NCBI GenBank assembly: GCA_965223505.1
Contig: CBDCWP010000034.1
Coordinates: 32,001-96,000, forward strand
Direction of reading: 5' to 3'
Origin: Planctomycetota bacterium
GTDB lineage: Bacteria > Planctomycetota > PLA2 > JAEUHO01
Length of the DNA stretch: 64,000 bases
The notes under the pieces were generated by a model that made no database searches, was not told where the DNA came from, and saw only the letters and a program-made list of their open reading frames with translations. The position numbers were made by a program, and so were the translations under genes. Below are positions 10,689 to 53,800 of this stretch, piece by piece; the stretch's first letter is position 1; each line of letters begins with the position of its first letter.

Positions 10689-10758
10689 CATACGGTACCG
10701 GGTTCTTTCTTTCGGCCACGCCATGCGTTCGCGGCGATCCGGCCAACGAAACCGGCGG
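10689..10758. repeat. GTACCGGG palindromic element, copy 1
   Basis: catacggtaccgggttctttctttcggccacgccat matches the reverse complement of 53759-53799; degenerate partner arm at 10744-10758. Confidence 0.75.
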
Positions 10759-11089
10759 CGGAGTATTTTCACTCGGAAGATGTCCGACGTTGGAACAAGT
10801 AGTACTCGGGGGTTCCCGGATCCCCGGTTCCCCTGAGAGCGAGGACGTCCTCAGTGAGCACAAACAACGGGAAACGGCGACCCGCAAGATGACCATCTTT
10901 GTACTCCAGGTAGCCCTCCGTGCCGCTATCCAAGCGCCACTTGACGACCAGCCAGTCGAGACGGCCCCCCGTCAATCGCAGTCGGCCTAGGCCGAGCGTG
11001 TGGCGCGGTCGGCGATTCGGTTCATGCGGGCCAAGTGAGCGCCTTGCCGATCGCAGGGAGAGCTAGGCGGCGCCATACAATGCCCGCCT

Positions 11090-11386
11090 GTGAAGCACTA
11101 CGTAGGGAACAAGGTCGTGGACCGTCGGTCTCGCCAGCAGCAGAGGGATGTCCTCCTCACGATTGCCATCGTTCTCGGCGTCATACTCCCGCTGCTCGTG
11201 ATATTCGCCGTGCGCAGCGACGAGAAGTGGAAGTGGGTCGCGGCGGCGGTGGAGGTCGGCGCGTGGTTCTTCGTGTGTAGGTGTGGCGTTACGCCGCAGG
11301 GGAGAGCGCGCAAGTGGAAGCGGCGCCATAGACGACGGGCCATGAATGCCGCTGATAAGAGCGCGAAGGCTAGAGAGCCCGGGTAG
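11090..11386 (+). CDS. Small two-TM membrane protein
   Basis: Two hydrophobic helices; TACAAT 8 nt before GTG. Confidence 0.55.
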   Translation: MKHYVGNKVVDRRSRQQQRDVLLTIAIVLGVILPLLVIFAVRSDEKWKWVAAAVEVGAWFFVCRCGVTPQGRARKWKRRHRRRAMNAADKSAKAREPG

Positions 11387-11429
11387 AGTTGCCTTTGCCC
11401 GATACCGGTAGTCATTCACTCCGCAGCAG

Positions 11430-11800
11430 ATGCAAGATGCGCCAGTGGACCCCAAGCTCGACTTCCCTTGCAGAGTCGTCTGCATCAGCGACCGGGCCTA
11501 CCTTGCCAGCGACGAGGAGGGGAACTTGCGCGCGCCTGGCCCGAACGACCGGCTGAGCGTGTGCTGACGGTCGGGAAGGTCTACGAAGTAGTCGGCGAGC
11601 ACCTCGGGATGTACGCGATCATCGATGACACTGGCGAGAGTTTCTTCCCCAAGAGCCGCTTCCGCCACGTCTCCGCGCTCCCCCGAGAGCGGCAAGTAGC
11701 GCCACCCTACCGCCCGAGATGTACTGCTGAACGGAAGACGGAATCTTGCCCCGGTGGTCCGCGTCCCACGTGCGCCGGAGCAGGAACATGTGCACAGTAA
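11430..11800 (+). pseudogene. Frameshifted small SH3-like hypothetical gene
   Basis: Frame from 11430 (FPCRVVCISDRAYLAS..., TGA at 11565) continues in another frame as LTVGKVYEVVGEHLGMYAIIDDTGESFFPKSRF; meaningful similarity probably ends near 11670. Confidence 0.5.
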
Positions 11801-12076
11801 TGGCGCTCCTCCGTCTACTGGTCTCGTCCCTACTGGTTGTGCTCGGCTCCGTCTGTGGGGCTGGTGGGCGCTTCAATCGATTGCCGGCATTGCTGGCGGG
11901 CTCCTCTACGGTCTCCCCGCGGGCTCGCATTTCGGTGGTTACCCCTACGAGCGGGGCCATCCTGGGCTTCTACCGGCTAACTGAGCGGTGGGAAACCGTC
12001 GTGGAGTAGCCTTCGCCCGAGAGCAGCGAGTAGCGCGACCTCGTACCTGCGCTCGTGTGTCCGTAAGATGCGGCGC

Positions 12077-12373
12077 ATGTCTGAGCCCTGGGAGTCCCTC
12101 CGCGTTGGCGACCGCATCCGCATTGTGCAGATGCCCAGCGGCGTCGACGCGCCGGGCTACGTCTTCTCGCGCTGCACGCGGTGGCTCTACGAGAAGCTCA
12201 TCGAGCGAGGCCGTTCACTGCGCATCGCCGAGATCGATGAGTACGGCCTTCCGTGGATTCACTGCAGGTTCCGGCAGGCTGACCAGACGTGGGAACACCA
12301 CTTTCTCGCCGTGAACGACGACAGTTGGGTGCAAGTACGGCACCGCCGCGACCGGAAGACCAGCGCCCGCTGA
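12077..12373 (+). CDS. Small hypothetical protein
   Basis: MSEPWESLRVGDRIRIV...IAEIDEYGLPW...EHHFLAVNDDSW; GC3-rich codons; TAAGAT 7 nt before ATG. Confidence 0.7.
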   Translation: MSEPWESLRVGDRIRIVQMPSGVDAPGYVFSRCTRWLYEKLIERGRSLRIAEIDEYGLPWIHCRFRQADQTWEHHFLAVNDDSWVQVRHRRDRKTSAR

Positions 12374-12494
12374 CGCCACGGCTCCGCGAGATTCGCGCAT
12401 CGGGCATGGTGTTCCGCAGCGTCTCGGTCAAGCCTCGGGCTCGACGTGGCGGCGGATGCTATCCTCACCCTACTGGTCTTGCAGGGGTGTCAAC

Positions 12495-13505
12495 ATGCCG
12501 TCGCGCGCCGTCTGGATCGTCGTTCTTCTCGTCCTCGTAGCGCCCCCGGCCCGCGCGGATGAAGCGTTCAAGGTGGGGTTGACAGTTACGAAGTCACTCG
12601 TCGTCGAGCGCACGTGGGTCTTCTGCGACGAAGAGACACTCGGCGCGTTCGCCATCGGCAAGAGCGGTGAACGAACGGTCTGGGTGAAGTTCAAGATCCC
12701 GTTTCGTTGGGCGATCGCAAGCCACGTCAAGCCGGGCACCCAGCTGGACTTCCGCGGCAAGGTGAAGGGCCCGCGAATCGGCGAGATCGACGCCGTTCAG
12801 GTCGACGACGCCGAGCTGATTGCCGTCGGCGGCCGGCCGCTTGCAAAGCTCGGCGCGGGCGTCGACTACGCGTCGTTTCGGGACGGGGTCTTCGACACCC
12901 GTCTCGCGCAAAGCAAGCGACTCGAGAACTGGAATGCGCTCAAAGGCAAGCGATTTACCGACGTCGGTGTCGTGCGGCGTGTCAAGGATGACGGGAAGTC
13001 GCTGGAGCTGGATTTCGTGTCCGGCGCCGGTACGCACGGTCGAATTACCATCGGTCGTCGACTCAGCGACGATGAGGTGACGAACCAGTACCTGCCACAG
13101 GCGCACGTCCTGGTGGCGGGTATCATCGAGGACTACGTGTTCCGCACCAAGACCGTCGTGGTCAAGGGGACTGACACAGCGGCGATTCCCAACAAGACGG
13201 GGGTCTGGCCGGAGGGGCAGGGAGCGACTCGGGGTCGAGCGCACGTCATGGGCGTCGGCGACATCTGCGAGGCGACCGATGAGATCGCCCTCTTCAGGGA
13301 CATGGAGTTCACCACCAAGATGGAGGCGCGCGAGAAGCTCGTCGGCACCCTCGCGAAGGGCGAGCGGTTCGAGATTCGGCGCTCCGACGGCTTCTTCGAG
13401 GTGGACTTCTTCATCGTGAGCCACAAGAACCCTCAGCTGCGGGGCTGGGCAAGCAAGGCGCTCGTCGAGAAGGCCGCCAAGATCGTTCGTGCAGGCGGCG
13501 CGTGA
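12495..13505 (+). CDS. Secreted hypothetical protein (OB-fold-like segments, C-terminal SH3-like)
   Basis: Signal peptide ending ARA-DE; beta-rich; C-terminal LRGWAS; domain calls are tentative. Confidence 0.7.
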   Translation: MPSRAVWIVVLLVLVAPPARADEAFKVGLTVTKSLVVERTWVFCDEETLGAFAIGKSGERTVWVKFKIPFRWAIASHVKPGTQLDFRGKVKGPRIGEIDAVQVDDAELIAVGGRPLAKLGAGVDYASFRDGVFDTRLAQSKRLENWNALKGKRFTDVGVVRRVKDDGKSLELDFVSGAGTHGRITIGRRLSDDEVTNQYLPQAHVLVAGIIEDYVFRTKTVVVKGTDTAAIPNKTGVWPEGQGATRGRAHVMGVGDICEATDEIALFRDMEFTTKMEAREKLVGTLAKGERFEIRRSDGFFEVDFFIVSHKNPQLRGWASKALVEKAAKIVRAGGA

Positions 13506-13571
13506 GCAAATCCGCACGACCGAACCGCCTCTTCCATGCACCCATACGACTCGGCGCGACCGGATCTCGTC

Positions 13572-14294
13572 CTAGACGAGCTCGTCGGCGAGGGCGTCGA
13601 GCAGACTACCGCCGTCGCCCCTCCACGCGGATCCGTGCATGCAGGCAAGGACCTGCGGTCGCGTGTCGATCAGCTTGTCGAAGAGCGCGCGCGCGTTCTT
13701 CGTGTGCGAGTAGTAGTCCATGTTTGCCTGCATGGCGAGCGACGGACCGAGGATGTCCCGTTCGGTCACGGGAGCGTGCTCCTGGCCGCCCTGCGTGAAC
13801 AGGTCACCGCAGAGCAGCGTCCGCGTTTTCGCCTCGAACAAATACCCGCATTCCCAGCCGTGAGGCAGGTGAGGCGTGTCGAGCCAGCGCAGGCGGTGGC
13901 GGCCGACATCGAGCTCCTCGCCATCGGCCATTGCACGCGCCGGCCGATCCGCCACGTCGTCGATCGAGACCATCGCGGCGATCCGGCTGCAGAGCGGCAC
14001 CGCGTTGGGTGCGGCAGCGAGGAACTCGTTCATCGCCCCGCACTCGTCGGCTTCGAAGTGCGAAAGGCCCACATACCGCAAGCGTTCGAGCGGCAGCACC
14101 CTGCTCACGGCCTCGGAGACGAGCGGGAACAACTTGCGCGGTCCAGTATGAAAGAGCACCGGCTCCTCGTCGTCGATCAGGTACTGGTTGAACGTGAATC
14201 CACCAGGGATCGCCTCCGGGGGGATTGGCGTGCTGATGCGATAGATGCCGTTTGTGATCTCGTCGACCCGCGTACTGCTTGTGTTCGTCGTCAT
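13572..14294 (-). CDS. MBL-fold metallo-protein (FprA/ODP-like di-iron domain)
   Basis: FNQYLI, FHTG, SHFEADECG, TPHLPHGW, CGDLF, ACMHG. Confidence 0.85.
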   Translation of the reverse strand: MTTNTSSTRVDEITNGIYRISTPIPPEAIPGGFTFNQYLIDDEEPVLFHTGPRKLFPLVSEAVSRVLPLERLRYVGLSHFEADECGAMNEFLAAAPNAVPLCSRIAAMVSIDDVADRPARAMADGEELDVGRHRLRWLDTPHLPHGWECGYLFEAKTRTLLCGDLFTQGGQEHAPVTERDILGPSLAMQANMDYYSHTKNARALFDKLIDTRPQVLACMHGSAWRGDGGSLLDALADELV

Positions 14295-14298
14295 GTGT

Positions 14299-14400
14299 AC
14301 ACGGTACCGGGTTTCCTGCCTCAGCTACACCCATGGGGCGTTCGCTGGATCGGGCCTACCCCGGATATCGAGCGCTCGAGAGAAACCCGGTACGGTATTG
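14299..14400. repeat. GTACCGGG palindromic element, copy 2 (inverted pair filling the intergenic gap)
   Basis: acacggtaccgggtttcc (14299-14316) ... gagaaacccggtacggtattg (14380-14400). Confidence 0.75.
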
Positions 14401-14404
14401 CGGA

Positions 14405-16255
14405 CTAGCGCAGGGCGACCACGAGCACGTCCTGCTGTGCCTGCGCGATGTTCGCCTGGTTGAAGAGCACGGCGCCTCGGCCCAGGGCATCCACTTCGAT
14501 CGCGAGCCCCGACACGTTGATGCCCGGGATCGCCGCCGAGAGCGGCTCGTCGGGACCGGACGTCGCGTCCGATGCGAGGCGGCGCATCGCCACGTGACTG
14601 CCCTGGCTCGGGTCGAGCGGGTCGTTGTGCACGGTATAGGCGACGAAGCCGCCCCCGCCGGCATCGATCGTCACACTCGGTGTCAGCTGCGGCCCGGCAG
14701 TCAGGGGCGTCGGCTCCGACGGCAGGTCGGCCGCCGACCATGCAACCGTGTGCAAGAACGACGGCCCGGCACTGAACAGCACGATCAGCAGGTCGCCACG
14801 TGCATTCGCAGCCACCGTCCCGAGGCCACGATCGCCCAGGCCGGCGCCCAGAGGCTCCGCTGGTCCGAAGCCGGTGGCCGGATCCAGGCGCGAACCGAAG
14901 GCGCTATGAGAGCCCTGCACGTCCTGCTCGGTCCAGAGCACGACACCGCTCTGCGCCGCCCCGGTCGCTCGCAACCGAGAGATGGAGAGCGCCTCGCCGA
15001 GCACTCGAGCACCGCTCCACTGCGGTGTCGTCGGCGTTCCGAAGACGGCCAGGACGCTCTCTGTCTGTCCGAGTGCATCGACCTCTTGCCAAGCGACGAC
15101 GGCCTCTCCGTTGGCGTCGACGGTCGACGACGTGACGCTGGGGACGTCACCGGGCCGATTCTCGAGAGGCACCGGGGCAAGGGAGGTGGCGTTCGAGATG
15201 CCGGCCGCCATGACGGTGAAGTCGAACACGCCGACCTCGTCGACCCAGGCGATGACGCCGCTGCCGTTCTCGTTCATCGCGAGCGAGAGTCCGAGCGCCG
15301 GCAGCCCGCTGCTCAGATCGTCGACGAGAAGGGGGCCGGTGGGGCTGCTTCGCACCGCCCGACGCACCAGCGCGTCGCCGCCGATCACCGGCTCTTCGAG
15401 CCACGTGATGACGCTCGCTCCCGTGCTGGTGACTGCGGGGATGGGCCGGCCGGCGCCACGCGTCAGCGCGTCCTCGAGCGGCTGCACGTCCCATGTGAGC
15501 GTCGTGGGATCGAAGAACGCCGCATAGGCGTCCGGCCCGGCCGGCGTGACGACGCGCCACACCGCCGTGGCATGTCCGTTCGCGGCCACCGCAAGCGAGT
15601 TCGGCGCGACGTTCAATGTTGCGGGAGCCGACTGGAGAAGCTCGGGCATCCCGGTCGGCAGTCCTTCCTCGAACCGCTGGGCGACGATGTCTCGACCACC
15701 GGGAACCAGCCGAACGTACAAGGCGACGCCGCTCCCGTCCCGCGCGAGCCGAAATGCAACGGCCCCGGTGATCTCGGGATCCGTCTCGAGCGGCGAAGGT
15801 GGAAGCGCCACCGCCGACCGCGTGTCGAATGCGAAGACGAAGGGGTTTTGACGCTCGTTGGCCTGCAGGTCGCGCACGCCCGCGGCGAGGGTGACTTGCG
15901 TTCTCGCCGCGAAGCGAAGCGGTAGCTGTGGCGTGAACACCACGGTGCGGTCGTTGTCTTCGAACGTGATCGTGCCGTCGATCGGCGCGTTGTCGGTGGC
16001 AGCGGTCAGTGTGCCGGGCTGCACGCTGGTCGTGTCGATCGGTACCGCAAACCTCAGTCGGATCGCCGTGGTCGGGTCGATGCCGACCGCGTCGACGGCG
16101 GGATCCACCGAGACGATGCGCGGGTCTTCGCCGTCGTTGACCACAGACTCGATGTCGGCCCCTCCGCCTCCGCCGCCGCATCCGCAAAGGCACATGAGGA
16201 ACATCGGCAGGCAAGCGAACATGAGGGCGGCGCGCAGGATGCGGGGAAGGATCAT
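14405..16255 (-). CDS. Lipoprotein with Ig-like (Big_5) domain and beta-propeller-like repeats
   Basis: Signal plus lipobox-like LCGC then poly-Gly; PRIVSVDP...IRLRFAVPID...VVFTP; AGGAG upstream. Confidence 0.8.
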   Translation of the reverse strand: MILPRILRAALMFACLPMFLMCLCGCGGGGGGADIESVVNDGEDPRIVSVDPAVDAVGIDPTTAIRLRFAVPIDTTSVQPGTLTAATDNAPIDGTITFEDNDRTVVFTPQLPLRFAARTQVTLAAGVRDLQANERQNPFVFAFDTRSAVALPPSPLETDPEITGAVAFRLARDGSGVALYVRLVPGGRDIVAQRFEEGLPTGMPELLQSAPATLNVAPNSLAVAANGHATAVWRVVTPAGPDAYAAFFDPTTLTWDVQPLEDALTRGAGRPIPAVTSTGASVITWLEEPVIGGDALVRRAVRSSPTGPLLVDDLSSGLPALGLSLAMNENGSGVIAWVDEVGVFDFTVMAAGISNATSLAPVPLENRPGDVPSVTSSTVDANGEAVVAWQEVDALGQTESVLAVFGTPTTPQWSGARVLGEALSISRLRATGAAQSGVVLWTEQDVQGSHSAFGSRLDPATGFGPAEPLGAGLGDRGLGTVAANARGDLLIVLFSAGPSFLHTVAWSAADLPSEPTPLTAGPQLTPSVTIDAGGGGFVAYTVHNDPLDPSQGSHVAMRRLASDATSGPDEPLSAAIPGINVSGLAIEVDALGRGAVLFNQANIAQAQQDVLVVALR

Positions 16256-16389
16256 CTGAGGTCTCCTCTGGGCCCTACGAGTGGGCCCCTAGGAGCGGAA
16301 CTCCCATTCGTCCTTTCAATTCGTCGCCCGCGCTCGGTTTTCGTCCAATGGGGATCCCCGGTGTCGAACGACCTCGTACACGACGGCGC

Positions 16390-17291
16390 TCAGCGGCCTT
16401 CGACGCGAGCGGGCGATCGCTGCGGCCGCGGGGAACGGTGCGCCTTCGCACCCGCCCCGCGAGCGGCCGGCAACGGATCGAGCAGCGACTCGTCGACGAA
16501 CGCGATGCGAATCAACGCCCCGAACAGCCACGCCCCGGCCGCGCGTGACAGGACGCGCTTGGTTAGGAAGGCGAAGAACCTGTACTGCCAGCCGGCGACG
16601 ACGGAAGGCCGGCGTCCCAGATGCCGCAGGCCCGTTCGAGCGACACGATCCGGCCGCAGCTGGAACATGCCCACGCGACGGAAGTCGATCGCCTTTCGCA
16701 AGCGGCCACCATGGGCGTCTTCGTCAACCCGGGCGACAAGCACAGGACGTCGACGCCGTGGGGCCGCAGCTCGTAGTAGAGGGCCTCCGCCAGATGGACC
16801 TGGTGGGCCTTGCCGGCTGCGTAGTTGGCCAGGTGCGGCACGCCCTGGTAGCCGATGCTCCCCGAGACGAACAGGACTCCACCGCGCCCGCGCTCGGCGA
16901 AACGTCGCCCGAACCGCTGAGCCAGCTCCGTCGGCGCCGTGACGTTCAACTCGATGACGTCGCGAAGCTCTGCAGGCGTGTGTCGTACGAATGCGCCGCG
17001 CTGCTCGGCGGCCGCGTTGTTGATCAAGAGGCCGACATCGAGGCTCCGGGTCTCGAGGTCGAGGGCTTCTCGGGCGTCCGACCGCTTCAGGTCGAGCGCG
17101 ACAACGCGCGTCTGCACGCCGAATTCGCGGCGAAGCTCGCTCGCAACGCCGTGCAGCGTCGTCTCCGAGCGCGACACCAGCACGACGTTCATCTTCGCCT
17201 GCGCCAGCATCCGCGCGAAGCTCTTGCCGATTCCGGACGAGGCGCCGGTCACGACGGCCCAGCTTCCGTACTTCTCGGTGAGTGATTGCAT
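16390..17291 (-). pseudogene. SDR family oxidoreductase with frameshift near 16705
   Basis: TGASSGIG, NNAA, YAAGK, PGLTKT; the natural C-terminus (RLRKAIDF...PDRVARTGLRHLGRRPSVVAG) is in the 16390..16743 frame. Confidence 0.75.
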
Positions 17292-17626
17292 CTCGAGTCT
17301 CCTGATTGCGTGCATGCCTCGAAGCGGCGTGAGCTGTGGCCGAAGGCAGGCGGGTGTCGGTCTCGACCTGATGGGCGTGAGGAGCGTCCTCACGATGTGA
17401 GGCGAGCGGTCGCTTCGTCTCGCGAACTCACCGTCGATGACCGGTGTTGCGACGGGCGTGGAGGGGTCGAGTGGACGCGGGACCCGGCGGCGTCCTCCGC
17501 GCTTCGCGGATCGGCTATCCTGCCGTCGTGGATGCCGAGAGACTGCGGTGCATCCTGGACCTCGTGTGAACACCAACGAACCCGAGCTGGAAGCGCTACT
17601 CGACGAGCCAGAGGAAGGAGCCCGAC

Positions 17627-31182: not shown

Positions 31183-33945
31183 GTGACACGCGAACACGTT
31201 CTTCGCCGCGCGCCCCTTCGAATCGCGTGCGTCGTGATCCTGGCGGCGCTCTTCTGCGCGCCGCTGCTTGCCGAGGACGACGAGGGTGAAGCGCCCGGCA
31301 AATGCACGTGTCACAAGGGCCACGCGACGTGGGAGTACCTGCGCTCGCCGATGGTCCCGCCCGAGGATCCGCCGCGCTGTCCCAACATGGTCGCCGGCGG
31401 CAACTGCGGTGGGAAGCGCCGTCCCCAGGACGCGGACGCCGAGTGCTGGGGCAGCCGGAAGAAGGAGTGCTTCTTCAAGCGGCATGCCTACAGCTGGGAC
31501 ATCAGCTGCAGCGTGTGCTGGGCGGACGACAAGTGCGAGGCCTGCAACGACCTCATCGGCGGGCCCGACCCGGTCGCGGCGGGAATCCTCGAGGACCGCA
31601 TGAAGGCCGAGGCCGAGACGCTGAAGGGCGAGCTCGTCATCTGCAAGTCGAAGCACTTCTACGTCGTGACGAACCTGCACAAGAAGGTCAAGGTCGTTAC
31701 CAAGCGCGGTAGCCGTCGGCTGATGACGTCCCACGAGCTGGCGCACCTTTTCGCCCAGCGCTGCGAGCAGGCCTTCGACGACTTCGACAAGTGGTTCGGC
31801 GGCAACGTCCTCCTACCCAAGCCCATGGCCGTCTACATCACCGACACGCTGCGCGAGAACGACGCCATCGGCCATCGTTACTTCGGGCGCGCCGGCATCC
31901 ACATGAACTACGCGTTCGCCTACAACAACCGGATCGCGAACGGGCTGTGCGGCAACGGCTTCGTGATGAACTATCAGGAGCAGCACTCCGATCATCACCT
32001 GCACGGCTTCGCGCGCCACCAGATCGGCCACATCCTCTTCTCCTGCTGGCACGTGCACAGCGGCTTCGAGGACAAGTGCCCGCGCTGGGCGTGGGTGGGG
32101 GCGGCGCACTTCCTCGAGAAACTGCTCGATGTCCACACCGACTACGCGACGTTCTGTTACGGCGAGGCGGACGGCGGTATCGGACCCATGAGCAAGTGGG
32201 AGCGGCGCGTCAAGGCGCTGGTGAAGGCGGAGACGCTCCAGCCCATCGAGACGTTCTTCAACAAGACCTCGTTGAGCAAGATGATGTACCCCGACCACCT
32301 GCGCGCCTGGTCCTACATGGACCTGGGCATGCGCGAGGATCGCGACCGGTGGCTGAAGCTGCTGATCGCGCTTCGCAACGGCGCCCAGGAAGGTCCTGCA
32401 TTCAAGGAAGCGATGGACCTCACGCCCGAGGACTTCCATCAGCGTTGGTCGGCCCGCGTGATGGGAAAGCGCAAGCGTCTCGGACCGGAGAAACGCGACG
32501 AGCTGTTCGAAGGCGACGCGTTGTTGCGGGAGCTGCTGCAGTTGCAGACCTCCGACGACATCGGTGTGATCGCCGGAAAGCTGCGCGGCCTCGACGTGAT
32601 CAAGGACGTCAAGACCGCGGAGGTGGCTATCGGGTACCTCACGCATGCATCCGATCTCGTGCGTGAGACCGTGCATCACCTCTTGTTGAAGACGAGCGAC
32701 GAGGACGTCCTGACGTTCTTGCGCGAAGAGGGACTCGCGGATGGACGCAAGCTCGTGCGCGCCGGCGTCGCGCGCGCCCTCGGCGAGCTGAAACACGAGC
32801 CGGCGCGGTTCGCGCTCGAACAGATGCTGAAGGATCGCGACTGGCTCTCGCGCGCGAACGCGGCGTACGCGCTCCAGCGCATCGAGAACCGCATCGCACG
32901 CCGCGCGCTTCAGGCGGCGCTCGACGACCGGCATCCGAAGGCCTGGATCTCGGTCGCGGACGCGTTCGCCCACTTCCCCGGCCGGTCGAAGGACGCAACC
33001 GCGCTCATCGCGCCCCGGCTGGAGCACAAGCTGTGGCAGGTGCGCATGACCGCCTGCCGGGCGCTTCGCCGCTGCGGCACGACCGAGGCCGTGGATCCGC
33101 TGCTATCCCGGTTCGAGGAGGAGGAGGGCCGGCTCAAGCTCGAGCTCTACCGAGCGCTGGTCGGCGTCACCGGCGTGGATCAGGGCCCCGATCCCGCCAA
33201 GTGGCGGCGTTGGTGGGAGGCCGAGAAGGAGAAGCACGGCGGCGTGCCGCCGCGGCCGGAGCGCGCGCCCGAGCCGGGCCGCAACCCGGCCGACGAGCGC
33301 TACGGGTTCGGCGACGAAGAGGACATTCCGGACGTGCCGCACCACTACGGGAAGCGCTTCTTCTCGCGCAGCGTCTGCTTCGTGCTCGACACGAGCGGCT
33401 CCATGAAGCTGAACATGAAGGTGCCGGAGGAAGCCGCCCGGAAGCTCGGCGACATCCCGACCAGCGGCACCCGCGCCGAGATCGCGAAGCAGGCGCTGAT
33501 CGACACGTTGAAGAAGCTGGACCCGCGGACGAAGGTTCGCGTCGTCTTCTTCAACACCAACGTGAAGCTGTGGAAGGACAATCTCGCGACGGCGAACACG
33601 AGCACCGTGTTGTCGTTGACGCGCGCCATCGATCGCACGCGGCCCGACGGCGAGACCAACTTCTACGGAGCGCTCAAGGCGGCCCTCGGCTTGCACGAGC
33701 TGCCGACGCTCAATCCGAAGCTCGACGTCATTCCCGACACGGTGTTCTTTCTGACGGACGGCCGCCCGACGCACGGCGAGATCACGGCCATGCCGGAGCT
33801 CACGTCGTGGATGACGAACCTCAATCGCTGGGCGAAGATCCGACTCCACGTCATCGCGCTCGGCGAGCTCAACGTCGATCTCCCGTCGCTCGGGAAGCTC
33901 GCCGCGGCAGGGAACGGCGAGCTGGTGCACGTACCCGAGATGTAG
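31183..33945 (+). CDS. Secreted protein: Cys-rich N-terminus, zincin-like segment, HEAT repeats, VWA domain
   Basis: Signal peptide; HQIGH; VR..A.ALG HEAT repeats; MIDAS DTSGS...T...TDG. Confidence 0.85.
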   Translation: MTREHVLRRAPLRIACVVILAALFCAPLLAEDDEGEAPGKCTCHKGHATWEYLRSPMVPPEDPPRCPNMVAGGNCGGKRRPQDADAECWGSRKKECFFKRHAYSWDISCSVCWADDKCEACNDLIGGPDPVAAGILEDRMKAEAETLKGELVICKSKHFYVVTNLHKKVKVVTKRGSRRLMTSHELAHLFAQRCEQAFDDFDKWFGGNVLLPKPMAVYITDTLRENDAIGHRYFGRAGIHMNYAFAYNNRIANGLCGNGFVMNYQEQHSDHHLHGFARHQIGHILFSCWHVHSGFEDKCPRWAWVGAAHFLEKLLDVHTDYATFCYGEADGGIGPMSKWERRVKALVKAETLQPIETFFNKTSLSKMMYPDHLRAWSYMDLGMREDRDRWLKLLIALRNGAQEGPAFKEAMDLTPEDFHQRWSARVMGKRKRLGPEKRDELFEGDALLRELLQLQTSDDIGVIAGKLRGLDVIKDVKTAEVAIGYLTHASDLVRETVHHLLLKTSDEDVLTFLREEGLADGRKLVRAGVARALGELKHEPARFALEQMLKDRDWLSRANAAYALQRIENRIARRALQAALDDRHPKAWISVADAFAHFPGRSKDATALIAPRLEHKLWQVRMTACRALRRCGTTEAVDPLLSRFEEEEGRLKLELYRALVGVTGVDQGPDPAKWRRWWEAEKEKHGGVPPRPERAPEPGRNPADERYGFGDEEDIPDVPHHYGKRFFSRSVCFVLDTSGSMKLNMKVPEEAARKLGDIPTSGTRAEIAKQALIDTLKKLDPRTKVRVVFFNTNVKLWKDNLATANTSTVLSLTRAIDRTRPDGETNFYGALKAALGLHELPTLNPKLDVIPDTVFFLTDGRPTHGEITAMPELTSWMTNLNRWAKIRLHVIALGELNVDLPSLGKLAAAGNGELVHVPEM

Positions 33946-43702: not shown

Positions 43703-43735
43703 GGCGGCCGAGGGTACCCGAGCCCGGCGCAGGGG

Positions 43736-45651: not shown

Positions 45652-45868
45652 CGACGGGCGTACACGCCGCGGCACATCCGGCAGGGCCCTGCGTCCCCGG
45701 CGGCCCGAACGTCGATGAAGAGGGCGTCGACCTCGTCGTAGGTCGGGCCCCGAATCCGGGCCAGAATGAACGGCCGGCCCAAACGACCGGTTTCCGGGGA
45801 AATTCGGAGTTTCGAGCCTTGGGATTGCGTCGAACGACGGGGTGTTCGGAAGGGAAAGACCTGCTGCC

Positions 45869-47401: not shown

Positions 47402-47442
47402 ACTTCAAACGCCGGACATCCGACGTTTCCAAGTGCGGTCCC

Positions 47443-48726
47443 ATGCCTCGTAGCCCCCTCGTCCTCCTGCTGCTCGCGTGCCTGGCCGCGTGCCTCTGCG
47501 CGCCTTCGCCGGTCCACGCCGACGTCGGCGGCGACGTCGTCACCAACCTCAAGAAGGCGTTTCGCAAGGGCACGCCGGTCGAGCAGCGGATCAAGGCGGT
47601 CAACGACGTGGGCGCGCTGCGCGGCCACCTGAACAAGCGCCAGAAGAACGAGGCCTACCGCACGATTCGCAAGCAGTTCAAGAAGGGGGAGGAAAGCGCG
47701 GTCCGGCGCGTGATGGTCAAGGCGTTGGCGCGATTGGGGCTCGAGAACGCGCTCATCGAGGTGATCAAGGCCTCGAAGAAGGACCCCGACGCCGAGGTGC
47801 GCAAGGCCGCGCGCATGGCGATCCTCGCCGGGCGAACGGTGTTCCTCGACACGTTGAAGCTGCTGTACGAGCAGGACGAGAACGCCGCGTTTCGCGCGGA
47901 GCTGATGTTGCTGTTGCGCGACCGGCGCAAGCCGGACGCGGTGCCGTTCCTGCTGTCCGCCTTCGACGACAAGGAGCCGATGGTCGCCGCCGCCGTCGCC
48001 GAGGCGCTGGAGGCGATCAGCGGCGAGGCGCACGGTTACGACGCGGCGGCCTGGAAGGCGTGGCACGCCCGGTGGCTGAAGGAGCGTCCCGCGTCCGTCG
48101 GCAACGGCGGCACGGTGGCGCCGGACGAAGGACCGGTCGAAGAGCCGCCGCCCCACGTGACGCGCTCCCTGCATCCGTCGTTCTACGGACTGAAGATCAC
48201 GTCGAAGAACGTCGTGTTCGTCGTCGACATCTCGGGCTCCGTCGGGTCCGGCGGCGTCGATCGAGCGAAGCGTGAGCTCGTGAAGGCCGTGGAGTTGCTC
48301 GGGTCGGACGTGCACGTCGGCGCCGTGTTCTTCTCCGAGAAGGTCGAGCTTTGGAGCGAGGGCCGGATGGTGCCGGCGTCGCCCGACAACAAGGAGAAGC
48401 TCGGCCTGTACCTGCGCGGGCTCGTCGCCGGACGCAAGACCGACGTCTACTCGGCGTTCAACGCCGGCTTGACCATCGTGCAGAAGCGTGTGGACGAGAA
48501 GAAGGAGAAGGGGGAGACGCTGCGCGAGCCCGTCACGCTCATCGCCGTGAGCGACGGCCAGGACAACATGGCGAAGATCCCGATCGACCGGATCGAGGAG
48601 AAGCTCGACCGTCTCGACCTCGAGAACAGTGTCGTGCACGCGGTGGTGCTCGGCGGCAAGCACAGCCGGCTCATGTACCTGTTTGCGAAGTACGGAGGCG
48701 GCCACCACGTCGTGGTCCCGCAGTAG
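47443..48726 (+). CDS. Secreted HEAT-repeat plus VWA domain protein
   Basis: Signal peptide; HEAT repeats; W.AW..RW linker, FYGL, VFVVDISGS, SDG. Confidence 0.85.
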   Translation: MPRSPLVLLLLACLAACLCAPSPVHADVGGDVVTNLKKAFRKGTPVEQRIKAVNDVGALRGHLNKRQKNEAYRTIRKQFKKGEESAVRRVMVKALARLGLENALIEVIKASKKDPDAEVRKAARMAILAGRTVFLDTLKLLYEQDENAAFRAELMLLLRDRRKPDAVPFLLSAFDDKEPMVAAAVAEALEAISGEAHGYDAAAWKAWHARWLKERPASVGNGGTVAPDEGPVEEPPPHVTRSLHPSFYGLKITSKNVVFVVDISGSVGSGGVDRAKRELVKAVELLGSDVHVGAVFFSEKVELWSEGRMVPASPDNKEKLGLYLRGLVAGRKTDVYSAFNAGLTIVQKRVDEKKEKGETLREPVTLIAVSDGQDNMAKIPIDRIEEKLDRLDLENSVVHAVVLGGKHSRLMYLFAKYGGGHHVVVPQ

Positions 48727-48730
48727 AACG

Positions 48731-49636
48731 CTACTTCTGCTTCAGGGCTTCCCGCAGCTTCGGATGCGTGGACGGACTGTCCGCGAGCTCGTTGATCGAT
48801 TGCGGGCGCCCGACGGCGAGACGCGCGTTGGCGGCGGCGACACGAATGTGCAGCGGCCGCGTCGGATCGAGGATCACCTGATCGAGCACCGTGAGCACGA
48901 CCGGGCCGCCGCGGTCCGGAAACGTCGACAGGAAGTCGATCGCGGCCGGCGCGGCCCAGTTGTCGCTCAGTCCCTCGCCGCGAGCGACGAGGATGAGGTT
49001 CACGATCGAACCCGAGCTGGCGTCGCCCGCGTCGGGCGCGAGCCACGACGCCGCTTCCAGCACCTCGCGCCGGAACAACCCGCTCTTCGCCATCGGCGCG
49101 ATCTGCTCGAAGACGAGCGCGCGCACGGCTTCGCGCTTGTCCTCCGGCGTCGCGTCGACGACCGCGGGAAGGTCACGTAGCGCGGCATAGACTTGTGCGA
49201 TCTCGTTGGGGTTGCGCCCGCGAAGCGCGGCGATGTTGAGCTGAAGCCGACGGGAGATGTCGACCGGCAGTCCCTGGGGGTAGGTGGGCTCCGTTGCGGG
49301 CTCCGGCATGGCGGACGAACCGGTCATGCCGGTGACGGCACCGCCGGCGCCCAGCCCCGCATCGGGCCCGGGTAGGGGGTTGACGGTGCCGGGCTCGGCG
49401 CCGTTCGTCTTCTTGGGCTCGTCGCCCTCGTTCGCCTTGCGGACGGCCTTCTCGGCCGGCCCTTCGCCCAGGAGCGACTGAATGAGCGCGAACATGACGA
49501 CGACGCCCAGCAGGAGCAGGACGAGCCCTTTGCCCTTGGGCGGCGGGGGCGTACTCCGGGAGATCGCTTCGACCCGGTTCGCCAGGTTGCTGCCGCTTCC
49601 CCGCGGTGCGGGGTCGCGATCTTGGAAGGATGACAT
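48731..49636 (-). CDS. Membrane-anchored hypothetical helical protein
   Basis: One TM helix, Pro/Gly linker, helical C-terminal domain; GAGGAAG before ATG. Confidence 0.7.
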   Translation of the reverse strand: MSSFQDRDPAPRGSGSNLANRVEAISRSTPPPPKGKGLVLLLLGVVVMFALIQSLLGEGPAEKAVRKANEGDEPKKTNGAEPGTVNPLPGPDAGLGAGGAVTGMTGSSAMPEPATEPTYPQGLPVDISRRLQLNIAALRGRNPNEIAQVYAALRDLPAVVDATPEDKREAVRALVFEQIAPMAKSGLFRREVLEAASWLAPDAGDASSGSIVNLILVARGEGLSDNWAAPAAIDFLSTFPDRGGPVVLTVLDQVILDPTRPLHIRVAAANARLAVGRPQSINELADSPSTHPKLREALKQK

Positions 49637-49689
49637 CGTTGCTTCCTCTCCGGGTCGGAGGGGCGATTCAATCGTACAGTACGACGGCG

Positions 49690-50835
49690 ATGGAATTCCA
49701 AATCGAGACCGCCGGAGAGAGCCACGGCGCCGTGTTGACGGCGATTTGCCATGGAATTCCGGCCGGATCACCCGTGGACGAGGCCTTCGTGAACGCCCGG
49801 CTGGCGGCGCGCCAGAAGGGTCACGGCAGCAGCCGGCGCCAGGAGATCGAGCAGGATCGGGTCGTGTTCCACTCGGGTGTGCGTGACGGCAAGGCGACGG
49901 GCAACCCGATCGCTCTGCAGGTCGCCAACAAGGACGAGACCTACAAGGACCTGCCCGCGGCCAACGAGCCGCGTCCCGGCCACGCCGATCTGGCGGGCGC
50001 GCTCAACCGGGGCGTCGACGACGCGCGGGACGTGATCGAGCGGGCGTCGGCGCGGGAGACCGCGGTGCGCGTGGCGGCGGGGGCCGTGGCGGCGCAGATG
50101 CTCGACGCGCTCGGCATTCGGGTGTTCGGCCACACGGCGTCGATCGGCGGCGTCGATTGCTGGGGCGATCCGGGCGCCGATCTCGAGGACGCGCGCGCAC
50201 GCCGCGCGGCGTCGCCGCATCACGCCTTGGGTCCCGACGAGGCGCAAGCGGCCGTGACGACGGCGATCGACGAAGCACGCGAAGCCGGGGACACGTTGGG
50301 CGGGGTGGTGGAGGTCGTCGCGGTGGGGGTGCCGGCGGGATTGGGCGGACACGAGCGTCCGGAGACGAAGCTGAGCACGGGTCTGGCGGCGGCCGTGATG
50401 GGCATTCAGGCCGTGAAGGGTGTGGAGATCGGGCTCGGGTTCCGCGGCGCGTCGATGCGCGGGTCGGAGGTTCACGATGCCATCCTGCCGTCGGCGGACG
50501 GGCCGGTGCGCGACGGGAACAACGCAGGCGGGATCGAAGGCGGCATGAGCAACGGGCAGCCGATCATGGTGCGCGCCGCGATGAAGCCGTTGGCGACGTT
50601 GCGCAACCGACTGCCGAGCGTGGATCTGCGCACCGGCGAGGCTGCGCCGGCGCGCTTCGAGCGCAGCGACACGACGGCGGTGTCGCGGCTGGCGATCGTG
50701 GCGGAGGCGGCGGTGGCGGCGGAGCTGACACGCCACGTGCGGCGCCGGTTCGGTGGGGCGCACATCGACGAGGTGGTGGCGGCGATGCAGCGTCATCGCG
50801 AGCGCATGGCGGCGCTGTTTGCCGACGCGGAGTGA
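49690..50835 (+). CDS. aroC: Chorismate synthase
   Basis: TAGESHG, PRPGHADL, ERASARETA, NNAGGIEGGMSNG, AMKP, ERSD. Confidence 0.96.
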   Translation: MEFQIETAGESHGAVLTAICHGIPAGSPVDEAFVNARLAARQKGHGSSRRQEIEQDRVVFHSGVRDGKATGNPIALQVANKDETYKDLPAANEPRPGHADLAGALNRGVDDARDVIERASARETAVRVAAGAVAAQMLDALGIRVFGHTASIGGVDCWGDPGADLEDARARRAASPHHALGPDEAQAAVTTAIDEAREAGDTLGGVVEVVAVGVPAGLGGHERPETKLSTGLAAAVMGIQAVKGVEIGLGFRGASMRGSEVHDAILPSADGPVRDGNNAGGIEGGMSNGQPIMVRAAMKPLATLRNRLPSVDLRTGEAAPARFERSDTTAVSRLAIVAEAAVAAELTRHVRRRFGGAHIDEVVAAMQRHRERMAALFADAE

Positions 50836-50866
50836 TGCTGTTGGTATCTTGCGCGCCGCGACGGAT

Positions 50867-50941
50867 GCCGGTGTAGCTCAGTGGTAGAGCGGCACTTTTG
50901 TAAAGTGCGGGTCGTCAGTTCGATCCTGACCACCGGCTCCA
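50867..50941 (+). tRNA. tRNA-Thr(TGT)
   Basis: GCCGGTG/CACCGGC acceptor, GCACT-TTTGTAA-AGTGC anticodon arm, TTCGATC, CCA; extended -10 TGGTATCTT upstream. Confidence 0.97.
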
Positions 50942-50950
50942 TTTCCCGCG

Positions 50951-51226
50951 TCAGCGTCGGCTGAACAGCGCGATCGGCACGCCGAGCACGAGGACCCACG
51001 TGCCGGGGTCCAGGACGGCGGGCGCGAAGACCCAGAGACCGAGCGGTTCGGGTCCCACGAACCACGCGGCCAGTGCGAAGACGATCGACCAGAGTGGCAC
51101 GCACGAGTAGCCGCCGCCCTCGTCCTTCGGTCTGCGGAACGCCTGGACGACGCCCAGGATGTTCATGAGCGCGCCGTACGACGCGACGGCGACCAGAAGG
51201 ATGCAGATCACGCTGCTCATGTTCAT
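50951..51226 (-). CDS. Small three-TM membrane protein
   Basis: Hydrophobic 91-aa ORF with GC3-rich codons. Confidence 0.55.
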   Translation of the reverse strand: MNMSSVICILLVAVASYGALMNILGVVQAFRRPKDEGGGYSCVPLWSIVFALAAWFVGPEPLGLWVFAPAVLDPGTWVLVLGVPIALFSRR

Positions 51227-51240
51227 GGGACGACGCCTCG

Positions 51241-51468
51241 CTAGTCGATCGTGTCGCCCTTGCGGTCGCACTTCGTGCCGCACTCGGTGCACGTCCAGCC
51301 ACCGCGCAGCATCTGCGACCAGCTGTCGGGCTTGCGCAGCTTGGGGAGCTTGTGGGAGCACTGCGGACAGACGCGGCTGGGTGCGAGCATGGCGAGGACG
51401 ACGACGCTGAGACCGCCGGCGAGGGCGCCCCAGAGCATCGCCTCTCCGAACCCACCGACGACGAGCAT
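51241..51468 (-). CDS. Small membrane-anchored Zn-ribbon protein
   Basis: AAGGAG RBS, TM helix, CPQC...GGWTCTECG..CDRKG. Confidence 0.7.
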   Translation of the reverse strand: MLVVGGFGEAMLWGALAGGLSVVVLAMLAPSRVCPQCSHKLPKLRKPDSWSQMLRGGWTCTECGTKCDRKGDTID

Positions 51469-51614
51469 GTGCGTCTCCTTGCGTGTCGTACAAAGCGTAC
51501 GTCGGGTGTCCGGGACTTGGCAGCCCCTGCTATGCCGATGAACCTTGACATCCGCTCCGAGTGGGGGTTTCTAGGCCCCTCGCGCCGCCGGGCGCGCCGA
51601 TCTCTGACACGCGT

Positions 51615-51700
51615 GGTGGGATACTCAAGTGGTCAACGAGGGCAGACTGTAAATCTGCTGGCTTACGCCTACGGGGGTTCGAGTCCCTCTCCCACCACCA
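51615..51700 (+). tRNA. tRNA-Tyr(GTA)
   Basis: GGTGGGA/TCCCACC acceptor, GCAGA-CTGTAAA-TCTGC, long variable arm, TTCGAGT, CCA. Confidence 0.97.
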
Positions 51701-51719
51701 TTCTTCTCCAGGCCCGGTC

Positions 51720-51756
51720 GTCATACCGTACCGGGTTTTTTTCGACGGCTTCGCAG
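51720..51756. repeat. GTACCGGG element, copy 3 (left copy of a 37-bp direct repeat)
   Basis: gtcataccgtaccgggtttttttcgacggcttcgcag, 36/37 identical to 53037-53073. Confidence 0.88.
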
Positions 51757-51816
51757 AACCCCGGCGATTGATGCGCTTCCCCCCGTGAGGAGACCGGTGG
51801 ATTGACCTGGGCGACT

Positions 51817-52116
51817 TCAGGGCCTCGCGTCATCTCTGTGCGTTGCCTCCCGCCGGTGCTTGCGCATGGCGCCTAGGCACTCCCGCACTTCCTTGATCTC
51901 CGCAATGAACAGCGACACCCAGATGCCTGCGGCGAGTAGCAGGAGCAAGATCATGTCGAGGTCCAGGTCCTGGAGGTGCCCAGGAAGAGTCAGGATGGCC
52001 CCAACCAGCCCCGCGAGAAGAACGATGCCGCCAAAGAAAACGTGCCCGATCAGGTGAAGCAGCGGTCGAGCCGGAGGGCACTTGCTCCAGTACGGGTTGA
52101 AGGGACGCAAGTCCAT
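51817..52116 (-). CDS. Small two-TM hypothetical protein
   Basis: Two hydrophobic helices. Confidence 0.55.
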   Translation of the reverse strand: MDLRPFNPYWSKCPPARPLLHLIGHVFFGGIVLLAGLVGAILTLPGHLQDLDLDMILLLLLAAGIWVSLFIAEIKEVRECLGAMRKHRREATHRDDARP

Positions 52117-52202
52117 TGGGAGAGTCTACCTTGAGTGACAGCGCGCCGTGCGGGAGCCGGGCTCTAGTGACCACAGCGCGCCATCTGAGTAACCTCGCGT
52201 AC

Positions 52203-52988
52203 ATGTGCGGAGACTCCGTCAAGCCTGATCGCGGACCGGTCCCGGCGACGATTTCGTTTTCGCTGACGCAACAGGCTGCCGCCGACCTGGCCACGACTGT
52301 CGATCTTCTGTCAGGCATCTGGTCCACACTCCAGACAAGCGGCCTCGTCCTCGCGCGTCCGGCTGAGTTCTGGCGACCAAGGGGTACGAACGATCAGTTG
52401 CTCCTGCACGTACTGTTTTGCAGCAGCTCCATGGCCGGCTCCTGGCTGCAGAACCCGGATGTCACCGCAGCTCATGGCGAGTCCATGAGCGCGTTGCTGG
52501 TTCGCCCGCCTGAGACCCGTTGTTACGCCGACTTGTTTCGAGGTGAACACCTCATCTGCACCTGCACCGCGTCGAACGGGTACATCGTCGAAGGAGGCGA
52601 TCCCGATTCGCTTTCGCCGGTGATCTGCCTGCAGTGCGATGGTCGCTTGCTAGATACCTCCCCCGAGTCGGGCGCCACGGTTGATGAATGGGCTAGCGCC
52701 TACACGCGTGTTCAGAGGATCTGGTTCGAGGGAGTGGTACTCGATTCTTGGAGCGCAGAACAGCTCTCGAACCCCAAAGGGGAGCTGATCCAGTTGGGCC
52801 TTGCGGCCTGCGCAGGCCTAGAAGCGAGACTGACTGCTCCCGTGTACCTGCGGATCCGGCAGTGGTGCTCAGAGACAGGTGACCTGCTGGCGACCGTTCA
52901 GTGCCCGCTCTGCGGTTCGTCTGGCGAGCAACTAGCTGATCGGCGGGCACTCCTGGTGTGTCGCGAGTGCCGCTTGGCGTTCGAGTAG
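52203..52988 (+). CDS. DUF2310-like Zn-ribbon protein
   Basis: CTC...SPVICLQC...W...Y...EQLSNP.G.L...G....A.LE....PVYL...CPLCG...CRECRL; start uncertain (ORF open from 52116). Confidence 0.65.
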   Translation: MCGDSVKPDRGPVPATISFSLTQQAAADLATTVDLLSGIWSTLQTSGLVLARPAEFWRPRGTNDQLLLHVLFCSSSMAGSWLQNPDVTAAHGESMSALLVRPPETRCYADLFRGEHLICTCTASNGYIVEGGDPDSLSPVICLQCDGRLLDTSPESGATVDEWASAYTRVQRIWFEGVVLDSWSAEQLSNPKGELIQLGLAACAGLEARLTAPVYLRIRQWCSETGDLLATVQCPLCGSSGEQLADRRALLVCRECRLAFE

Positions 52989-53036
52989 CCTACAACAGGA
53001 AACGTGACTGCTAGACCGTACCTCGTTTCTTTCGAG

Positions 53037-53112
53037 GTCATACCGTACCGGGTTTTTTCCGACGGCTTCGCAGGCGACTGAGAGGCCCGAAAAGAAACCC
53101 GGTACCGCATGA
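53037..53112. repeat. GTACCGGG palindromic element, copy 4 (complete, both arms)
   Basis: gtcataccgtaccgggttttttccg...cgaaaagaaacccggtaccgcatga; extra degenerate arm accgtacctcgtttctttcga at 53015-53035. Confidence 0.88.
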
Positions 53113-53115
53113 GCG

Positions 53116-53643
53116 TCATCGATCGTCGGGCGGACGCAGATCCTCGAAGAGATCCTCGGGCAGCAGCTCCAGCTGCGGAACGACGTCGGATTGCAGGGGG
53201 TCCGATCCGCGGAAGAACCGCGTTCCCGTCGGCGTTCGAACCTCGACCACGCCCTGCTCCGCGTCCACCAACCAGACCTCTTCGACGCCTGCGTCCAACA
53301 GGATCGGGGTCTTGACGGCACGGTCCCTTCGACGCGTCCCCGGCGAAAGGACCTCGATCGCGACGCACGGAATGCCGACGTTCGTCGCCGTCAAGGCCGG
53401 CGGCTTGCGCAGCACCACGATGTCCGGCTGGAACACGTTGTAGTCGTCGATCTCGACATCCGTCGGTGACAGCACGACCAGCCGCGAGTTCACCACCCCG
53501 CACAAGGACAGATAGAGCCGTCCGACCAGACCCTGATGGCCGTACGTCGGCGGCGGCTCCTTCACCAGGTGACCGTCGATGAGCTGTGCCGGGAACCCCT
53601 CGGGCAAGCGCGCCCAGTCCTTGCGTGTGAAACCGATCGTCAT
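53116..53643 (-). CDS. Uma2 family (PD-(D/E)xK-like) endonuclease
   Basis: QLIDG.L..EPPP..GHQ, QPDI, IEVLSPGTRRRDR..K, GV.EVWLVD. Confidence 0.9.
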   Translation of the reverse strand: MTIGFTRKDWARLPEGFPAQLIDGHLVKEPPPTYGHQGLVGRLYLSLCGVVNSRLVVLSPTDVEIDDYNVFQPDIVVLRKPPALTATNVGIPCVAIEVLSPGTRRRDRAVKTPILLDAGVEEVWLVDAEQGVVEVRTPTGTRFFRGSDPLQSDVVPQLELLPEDLFEDLRPPDDR

Positions 53644-53698
53644 TGCGTGCACGCGATGATATCGCCTCGCATCGCCGCAGGGTTACACGCGTACTCGC

Positions 53699-53800
53699 CA
53701 CGTGCCGGACATCTCCACGGCTTCGTAGCCGCGGGTGGGGGCGACGGAACGCCGCCGGATGGCGTGGTGAAGCCGAAAGAAAAAACCCGGTACCGTATGA
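53699..53800. repeat. GTACCGGG palindromic element, copy 5
   Basis: Right arm gccgaaagaaaaaacccggtaccgtatga (to 53800); degenerate left arm containing acggcttcgtag at 53717-53728. Confidence 0.72.

Follow-up and report, generated by a model that had tools for sequence, protein, structure and literature searches.

Inverted-repeat arms downstream of tRNA genes in a planctomycete genome are probably non-autonomous repeats of a RAYT-like transposase

Introduction

Genes for transposases resembling the REP-associated tyrosine transposases (RAYTs; REP, repetitive extragenic palindrome) may be flanked by terminal inverted repeats (TIRs), an arrangement described as TIRtrons or TIRYT, and some of these TIRs are found as moderately abundant singles, dimers and clusters (Di Nocera et al. 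2013, PMC3733652). Here we describe a short element that lies at five places in a 64-kb stretch of DNA from a Planctomycetota bacterium (positions 32,001 to 96,000 of contig CBDCWP010000034.1, assembly GCA_965223505.1; the window), within two regions of accessory genes that are each headed by a tRNA gene. A sequence-only reading of the window had taken the element for either a cassette-recombination site or a non-autonomous element mobilised in trans. We conclude that the elements are probably repeats of the REPIN/TIR type (REPIN, a doublet of REP-like units that forms a hairpin), non-autonomous and dependent on a RAYT/TIRYT-like transposase, and that they form a lineage-specific family of a known kind. 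The evidence that carries this conclusion is a short motif at the outer end of each repeat, the head, which in other genomes again lies outermost in the inverted repeats around long RAYT-like genes. R. baltica is a planctomycete as well. It is named by Di Nocera et al. among the species rich in such genes and repeats (PMC3733652).

In the classification of Quentin et al. (2018, PMC6006769), TIRYT proteins are subclass 2.1 of the TnpA-Y1 transposases and carry a C-terminal extension that resembles a helix-turn-helix (HTH). The system described here resembles TIRYT in that a long RAYT-like Y1 gene is flanked by TIRs instead of GTAG hairpins, and in that the repeats are dispersed as singles, dimers and clusters: 14 repeat units, or arms, in the genome of the window (G000), about 34 in a second genome (G033) and 56 exact copies, arrays included, in a third (G312). 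A genome may also hold a TIRYT gene whose TIRs are not dispersed, as is the case for the RAYT-like gene on contig C30 of G000. The dispersed arms of G000 are not the TIRs of this resident gene. The printed TIR consensus is GGGGWSAS, whereas the head here is ATAC[C/G]G..CC.GG and only a copy in genome G028 has GGGGAGAG; the HTH of subclass 2.1 shows weakly, in one of eight proteins at E 4e-4; and the proteins are longer, at about 330 aa compared with a median of 238 aa.

The REP/REPIN-RAYT systems (Bertels & Rainey 2011, PMC3116915; Bertels et al. 2017, PMC5581495) share with ours the short extragenic repeats, the inverted doublets with a variable spacer that form hairpins in single-stranded DNA (ssDNA), the singlets read as decayed remnants, the ordered tandem clusters and the lack of target duplication. 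In both, copies flank a single-copy HUH/Y1 transposase (HUH, His-hydrophobic-His), an arrangement seen in G312, G031 and G033 and not in G000. For RAYT group 1, the flanking 16-mers have about 12 copies across the genome according to Bertels et al. (PMC5581495), the same order as the 14 arms of G000. The systems differ in that the arms here are non-palindromic, with the head ATAC[C/G]GTACC and no GTAG or GTGG tag, and in that copies are few, with three of the ten loci of G000 being doublets and the resident homologue having no flanking arm. Two separate classical GTAG REP families are also present in G000.

Results

Arms and doublets in the window

The limits of the arms were set by reading the five places and by matching to a 20-mer consensus. 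An arm is about 35 nt long and starts with the head, (C)ATAC[C/G]GTACCGGGT, which is followed by a T-rich stretch and then a GC-rich stretch. The 3' part after the T-rich run is of two types, A with CGACGGCTTCGCAG and B with CTTTCGGC..CACGCCAT. The 13-mer core ACSGTACCGGGTT, at one mismatch or fewer, has seven matches in the window (10692+, 14301+, 14384-, 51725+, 53042+, 53096- and 53784-) against a mean of 0.07 in shuffled sequence, and none of 100 shuffles reached seven. The matches are confined to the five places named in the sequence-only reading. All seven arms fall between open reading frames (ORFs) that are backed by Pfam or by GC content at third codon positions (GC3), and the ORF table puts the elements 3-5 nt from the stop codons at 14405 and 53116 and from the start codon at 14294, where 3-4 nt had been reported earlier.

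Two of the five places hold inverted doublets (Table 1). By Pfam, the first lies between the stop of a Big_5 gene (14405-16255, -) and the start of a metallo-beta-lactamase-fold gene (13572-14294, -), and the second sits between a DUF2310-like gene (52116-52988, +) and a convergent Uma2 gene (53116-53652, -). Folded as ssDNA, the first doublet reaches -25 kcal/mol (z -2.67) and the second -21.8 kcal/mol (z -4.25), with 0 of 200 shuffles as good in either case. The folds of the other three places (10685-10762, 78 nt; 51705-51760; 53695-53804, 110 nt) were not above their shuffles (z 0.69, -0.66 and -0.17), and we therefore read these as single arms. The arm behind tRNA-Tyr is the top nhmmer match of the whole family, can form a 9-pair stem ahead of a run of seven T, and is identical at 34 of 35 positions to the left arm of the second doublet. 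By a count made by eye, the degenerate tandem copy that abuts this doublet has 20 of 27 positions in common with an arm. To the eye, 53699-53733 may be a decayed partner of the last arm.

Table 1. Repeat units and tRNA genes of the two accessory regions, in window coordinates
Feature	Position	Strand	Remarks
tRNA-Lys	9617..9692	+	heads the first accessory region
Single arm, B type (CATACGGTACCGGGTTCTTTCTTTCGGCC...)	10689..10723	+	~1 kb downstream of tRNA-Lys; nhmmer E 7.8e-08
Inverted doublet, REPIN-like hairpin, heads outermost, variable spacer	14298..14399		nhmmer E 2e-05 and 1e-05
tRNA-Tyr	51615..51700	+	heads the second accessory region
Single arm, A type (CATACCGTACCGGGTTTTTTTCGACGGCTTCGCAG)	51722..51756	+	begins 22 nt past tRNA-Tyr; nhmmer E 1.8e-10
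Degenerate tandem arm copy abutting the doublet 53039-53111	53012..53038	+	4 mismatches to the 20-mer consensus
Inverted doublet, REPIN-like hairpin	53039..53111		core matches, nhmmer, ssDNA fold
Single arm, B type	53765..53799	-	upstream of the Uma2 gene; nhmmer E 2.1e-08

The arm family in the genome of the window

The assembly of G000 has 5.15 Mb in 44 contigs, with 67.4% GC and 92% completeness, and the window lies on its contig C34. A search of these 5.15 Mb with an nhmmer profile of the arms returned 14 copies (E <= 1.8e-4) at ten loci, and the next matches had E > 5. Besides the five places in the window, the loci are a doublet at C34:199081-199171, a direct pair on contig C8 and singlets on C35, C40 and C44. 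Three of the ten loci are thus head-out doublets, of 73-102 nt, next to singlets and two direct pairs. Folded as RNA, the three doublets reach -42 to -65 kcal/mol. This picture of dispersed low-copy singlets, inverted doublets and tandem copies agrees with the part of the sequence-only reading that spoke of an ssDNA hairpin or a non-autonomous element moved in trans.

The third doublet qualifies two of the earlier observations. Both window doublets pair a CCG arm with a CGG arm, which is the C/G mismatch first noted, but the doublet at C34:199081-199171 has CGG on both arms. It also occupies a core spacer, with the stop codon of an AAA_2 (HslU-like) gene on one side and the aspartyl-tRNA synthetase gene (aspS) on the other, so that the absence from core blocks holds within the window and not for the genome as a whole.

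Nine of the 14 arms follow one of three tRNA genes (Lys, Tyr and, on C8, Met; the genome has 66) at a distance of 5 kb or less, a clustering that rough arithmetic puts at about 1% by chance. The other five, the HslU-like/aspS doublet among them, are outside the tRNA islands. For comparison we used the 40 genomes of the order, G000 included, and a phylum sample of 401 genomes, none of them of the same genus. Neither the DUF2310-like gene nor the 349-aa ORF at 12456-13505 was found in any of the 39 other genomes of the order; what lies between the window arms is genome-specific and accessory. The accessory, post-tRNA setting described earlier is thus largely right, but the arms are not restricted to it. 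Among the inter-arm genes tested, none has a second copy in G000 except the member of the Uma2 family, which counts eight genes, one of them beside arms. Uma2 was considered as a mobilising nuclease and rejected, as only one of the eight Uma2 genes adjoins arms.

On C8 (151650-151830) two direct arms stand 153 nt apart, ~0.7-0.9 kb downstream of tRNA-Met. The 36-codon ORF between them includes a hydrophobic stretch and terminates within an arm (...GRRKKPGTV-stop), probably by chance. The strand opposite the arms can also be read as coding (...RRKKPGTV-stop), which puts the C/G and Y sites at third codon positions; this was set aside, as most copies have in-frame stops shortly upstream.

Inverted repeats of RAYT-like genes in other genomes

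In G312 a 324-aa ORF is bordered by two tandem copies of the motif on each side, inverted between the sides. Its product matches PF01797 (Y1_Tnp) at 26.7 bits (cut-off 23) and the NCBIfam model REP_Tyr_transpos (REP-associated tyrosine transposase) at E 1e-13 and 51 bits, below the model cut-off of 80. A homologue in G031 is bordered by one inverted copy on either side, and in G033 an arm lies ~95 nt upstream of the homologue, the other side being a contig end. The bordering repeats are each genome's own variant in all three. An HUH/RAYT partner, which the sequence-only reading had raised as one option, is thus found in related genomes.

In an alignment of eight of these proteins, H60 and H62 of the HUH motif and Y119 are invariant, and seven of the eight match PF01797. 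A profile built from the eight matched a single PDB entry, the E. coli TnpA-REP structure 4ER8 (E 2.9e-4), and had a match at E <= 1e-20 in 62 of 151 sampled phylum genomes. HTH-like Pfam matches were found in two of the eight proteins, both weak, with the HTH being C-terminal in one. The family of long (~330 aa) RAYT-like proteins is often multicopy within a genome, with 12 matches in G026, for example, and its members have a conserved C-terminal half with W-M-x-x-x-A-x-x-A-D-G that corresponds to no Pfam family (loci L133-L155).

The flanks of the gene were examined at 24 full-length loci from other genomes, kept out of 30 returned after six matches to the N-terminal half only had been dropped. 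Inverted repeats of at least 19 nt flank 21 of the 24 by a script in which chance was not controlled per locus. A degenerate head, TAC[CG]G[TA][AG]CC[AG]GG with at most one mismatch, was found upstream and pointing toward the gene at 12 loci, downstream and inverted at 10 and on both sides at 10, and never in the wrong orientation; the reversed pattern gave 1 and 0 at the same loci. The C/G alternative at position 4 of the head is present throughout the family. By this comparison of sequences, the TIRs of the ~330-aa RAYT-like gene family have the head TAC[C/G]G..CC.GG as their conserved outer end. The predicted link of the window arms to this transposase rests on the shared head, the shared architecture and the similarity of the whole arm to the G033 variant.

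Dispersed copies of the head in other genomes

Three or more exact matches to the head as a 14-mer occur in three of the 401 phylum genomes (seven in G000, four in G022 and 17 in G312), the remaining 398 having none or one, and the reversed-pattern control gave at most three in any genome. The scan of the order added G033, with three exact matches and with 34 at three or fewer mismatches against three for the control. A 13-mer has 56 exact copies in G312. The variant differs between genomes, being TACGG[T/A][A/T]CCGGGTGTTTTCCTGCGAAACTCGCG in G033, TACGGTRCCAGGTYTTTTCCTACGG in G022 and TACSGTACCAGGTCTAWTCCCCTCGGTCGAAG in G312. Because the distribution is patchy and the variant changes from genome to genome, we read the motif as a mobile repeat and not as a conserved regulatory site.

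Copies in these genomes are solos, head-out doublets of roughly 40-330 bp and tandem arrays, and many lie at contig ends. In G033 and G312, short doublets and solos that hold no cargo make up most of the copies. G022 and G312 also have tandem direct copies, at distances of 36-59 nt, and on direct reading the G312 unit alone forms a 5-bp stem, ACCTG/CAGGT. A rule by which every doublet joins a C-arm to a G-arm was given up, as the list of doublets in G312 and G000 includes mixed and same-type pairs. Nine head motifs form an ordered array in tandem at C16:38913-39183 of G312 (loci L099-L107). The spacings alternate between 42 and 17 nt up to 39090, and the last two copies are spaced at 54 and 27 nt; inverted copies follow the array 0.15-1.4 kb away.

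Searches farther afield gave little. A 19-mer pattern had 13 single matches, in unrelated taxa, among 185,579 species genomes, which an arithmetic estimate made with no tool control puts at about chance level. A metagenome scan with a 23-mer returned two contigs that hold a different repeat, GGATCCGGTACC, the arm itself being absent. At these metagenome loci (L034 and L035) three GGATCCGGTACC units surround a stretch with a 23-nt match to the arm, and one of the two contigs has 73% identity over 213 nt to C30:203692-203900, ~1.2 kb from the RAYT-like gene of G000.

The resident homologue

G000 has one intact homologue of the RAYT-like gene, at C30:205066-206046 (327 aa; locus L131:2064-3047, -), and a decayed fragment on C10. 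The C30 protein has 37% identity to the G312 protein (E 2e-65) and scores 28.2 bits against PF01797 (cut-off 23) when scanned as a protein; the whole-genome scan for PF01797 at E <= 0.001 returned nothing and is a false negative in this respect. A PDB search with the C30 protein alone gave no match, and the profile of eight was needed. By eye, the C30 gene adjoins the end of a transposase gene that looks to be of IS110 type. A tRNA-like piece beside it was not confirmed by Rfam.

The arms of G000 are orphans in this 92%-complete assembly. Their cognate enzyme may be unassembled or lost, or it may be the C30 enzyme acting on the shared head. The GTAG-tagged REPs of G000 are in the same position: the only RAYT-like gene found has none of them within about 10 kb, and their cognate RAYT is also missing from the assembly. 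Because these 211 REPs also have no flanking RAYT, the absence of a RAYT from a 92%-complete assembly is weak evidence either way.

Discussion

We propose that a RAYT-like Y1 enzyme most likely spread the arms in trans. By analogy with IS200/IS605 and REP/RAYT systems, such an enzyme would act on single-stranded DNA, recognising the head together with a hairpin, and would cut and rejoin the strand without duplicating the target, as established for IS200/IS605 and as proposed for REP/RAYT (PMC3116915; PMC3733652; PMC6006769). The doublets would be the mobile unit and the singlets remnants of doublets. In mixed doublets the C.C or G.G mismatch could serve to discriminate between strands; same-type pairs also exist. 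Copies would have gathered in intergenic spacers, chiefly in three regions peculiar to this genome that follow tRNA genes, either as these regions tolerate insertions or as they came in together with the repeats. With 14 arms, the family of G000 is small, and it looks orphaned or old because no arm stands beside the intact homologue and most copies are singlets.

Several observations weigh against the assignment to a RAYT/TIRYT-like transposase. The C30 gene is flanked by an inverted repeat of its own, 27 nt long and of another subtype, in which only the upstream copy has a head (TACCGAGCCAGA, near the subtype of G015) while the downstream head is gone. This repeat is not dispersed in G000, and neither the C30 gene nor the C10 fragment has an arm within 2.5 kb. 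Single arms are non-palindromic and have no GTAG tag, and so are not classical REPs. Most of the foreign loci would be linked to the arms only by the 12-nt degenerate head, which was defined after several genomes had been viewed, and a profile built from G000 arms only had one match at 41 RAYT-like loci, the G033 arm (E 0.013). No excision or empty allele was seen in contigs from four runs of one study, at a depth of about 4-8; the joints listed there have sides of 20-26 letters in unrelated places, and none borders an arm. One sample, S2, leaves 51208-51608 and 52010-52811 uncovered, which is uninformative at such depth. Finally, this assignment does not predict that copies cluster beside tRNA genes or around single accessory genes, and such clustering needs an added assumption.

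This clustering would agree with gene-cassette or capture sites, at which a site-specific recombinase or a Y1 enzyme would place single accessory genes by tRNA genes. The nine tRNA-proximal arms and the genes found in none of the 39 other genomes fit such sites, as do the two A-type arms that flank the DUF2310-like gene as direct repeats with 34 of 35 positions identical, and the outer arms at 51722(+) and 53799(-), which bracket a 2.08-kb two-gene segment head-out much as the G312 transposase gene is bracketed. We nevertheless consider cassette sites unlikely. None of the 57 scanned window ORFs has an integrase or transposase domain (PF00589, 0 of 57), and none of the 17 Phage_integrase matches in G000 is on contig C34. 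The orientation of the arms, +,(+,-),-, gives no single site per gene in one direction; five arms, including the HslU-like/aspS doublet, are outside the islands; most copies in G033 and G312 are cargo-free short doublets or solos; no arm-flanked gene recurs elsewhere in G000, the eight-copy Uma2 being the only multicopy exception among the genes tested; and the low-depth contigs have no joints at arm borders. The cassette-recombination part of the sequence-only reading is accordingly not upheld. Its remark that the arms have neither RYYYAAC/GTTRRRY cores nor GTAG is correct, neither being seen in them. Integron attC sites share with the arms the imperfect hairpins of variable length between single genes and the idea of conserved unpaired bases. 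They differ in that the arms have no IntI-type integrase nearby and, on direct reading, no R/L core sites, are of mixed orientation (+,(+,-) in one region and +,+,(+,-),- in the other) and occur in core spacers too, and in that the gene tied to them in relatives is a Y1 transposase. A combined scheme would have the RAYT-like Y1 enzyme itself move or capture whole segments with genes on them ('cargo TIRtrons') and leave them downstream of tRNA genes. The idea comes from the clustering and from head-out pairs that bracket genome-specific genes in the geometry seen around the transposase gene elsewhere: the DUF2310-like and Uma2 genes lie within 51722(+)...53799(-), and a 3.7-kb block lies within 10689(+)...14399(-). 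We hold it to be quite improbable; if true, it would amount to a single-strand, HUH-based route of gene capture.

An origin as miniature inverted-repeat transposable elements (MITEs) of a DDE transposon, for example an IS630/Tc1-like element with a TA target moved by a cut-and-paste transposase, would account for the inverted-repeat doublets, which measure 73-102 bp and vary in their centre, and for the TA or A that precedes many heads. Against it, a genome scan found no DDE_3 gene in G000, direct reading of the three doublets found no target-site duplication, and the motif-bordered gene of other genomes is a homologue of Y1 transposases and not a DDE enzyme. The sole DDE_Tnp_1 element of G000, present in two copies, has ends unrelated to the arms. 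We regard a DDE origin as very improbable indeed. A host-function site kept by selection, be it a terminator, an mRNA-stabilising hairpin or a binding site for a regulator, would agree with the strictly intergenic position of the window copies, 3-22 nt from the ends of genes or tRNAs, and with the T-run after the head, before which the tRNA-Tyr arm can form its stem; co-option of REP-type repeats to such ends is known (PMC3733652). Yet a consensus scan of 50800-54600 found neither a terminator-like nor a promoter-like site, and the T-run lies within the doublet stem, not past it. Rfam at the gathering score returned tRNAs only and nothing at an arm; at E <= 1 it added two chance-level matches below gathering, neither of them at an arm. 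The orientation of the arm to the upstream gene varies, and the repeat is multicopy in only three of the 401 phylum genomes and, by the order scan, G033, each with a different variant. Selection for a host function is therefore an unlikely explanation of the family, whereas non-autonomous repeats of a RAYT/TIRYT-like transposase probably account for it.

The IS200/IS605 elements IS608 and ISDra2 resemble this proposed system in the HUH/Y1 core of the enzyme (PF01797, with HUH and Tyr kept) and in the lack of target duplication. By analogy, their imperfect hairpins with unpaired bases on one strand may be matched by the C.C or G.G mismatch that mixed arms would give. Their ends are asymmetric subterminal hairpins and not long TIRs, in contrast to the repeats here, and they carry their own transposase.

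An odd palindromic element thus finds an explanation as part of the RAYT/TIRYT repeat world, and no new gene-capture system is revealed. The orientation-specific head TAC[C/G]G..CC.GG is a usable marker for the inverted repeats around long RAYT-like genes and a concrete substrate for testing how the little-studied long Y1 enzymes recognise DNA. The arms are also flagged as a cause of contig breaks in metagenome-assembled genomes.

Other repeats and neighbouring genes

The two abundant classical GTAG-tagged REP families of G000 are GTAGGGGCAGCCCTTGTGGCTGCCCAA and GTAGGGGCGACCCTCGTGGTCGCCCAA, whose commonest 14-mers have 124 and 86 copies. The GTAG REP pattern has 211 sites in the genome, five of them in the window at 249(-), 34774(+), 34837(-), 34907(+) and 34971(-). 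The arms are a minor family, clearly distinct from these REPs. Further short repeats of G000 are GAATCAGCTAGCTGATTCAAGCGAAGC, which is palindromic and whose 14-mers have 34 copies, and TTTACAGAAAGAACG, with 33 copies. Just past the second accessory region of the window, 55494-57206 encodes an RHS-repeat/DUF6531 protein and 57210-63992 a kinase-domain protein of more than 2260 aa with many WD40 repeats; GC falls to 0.58 at 56001-57000.

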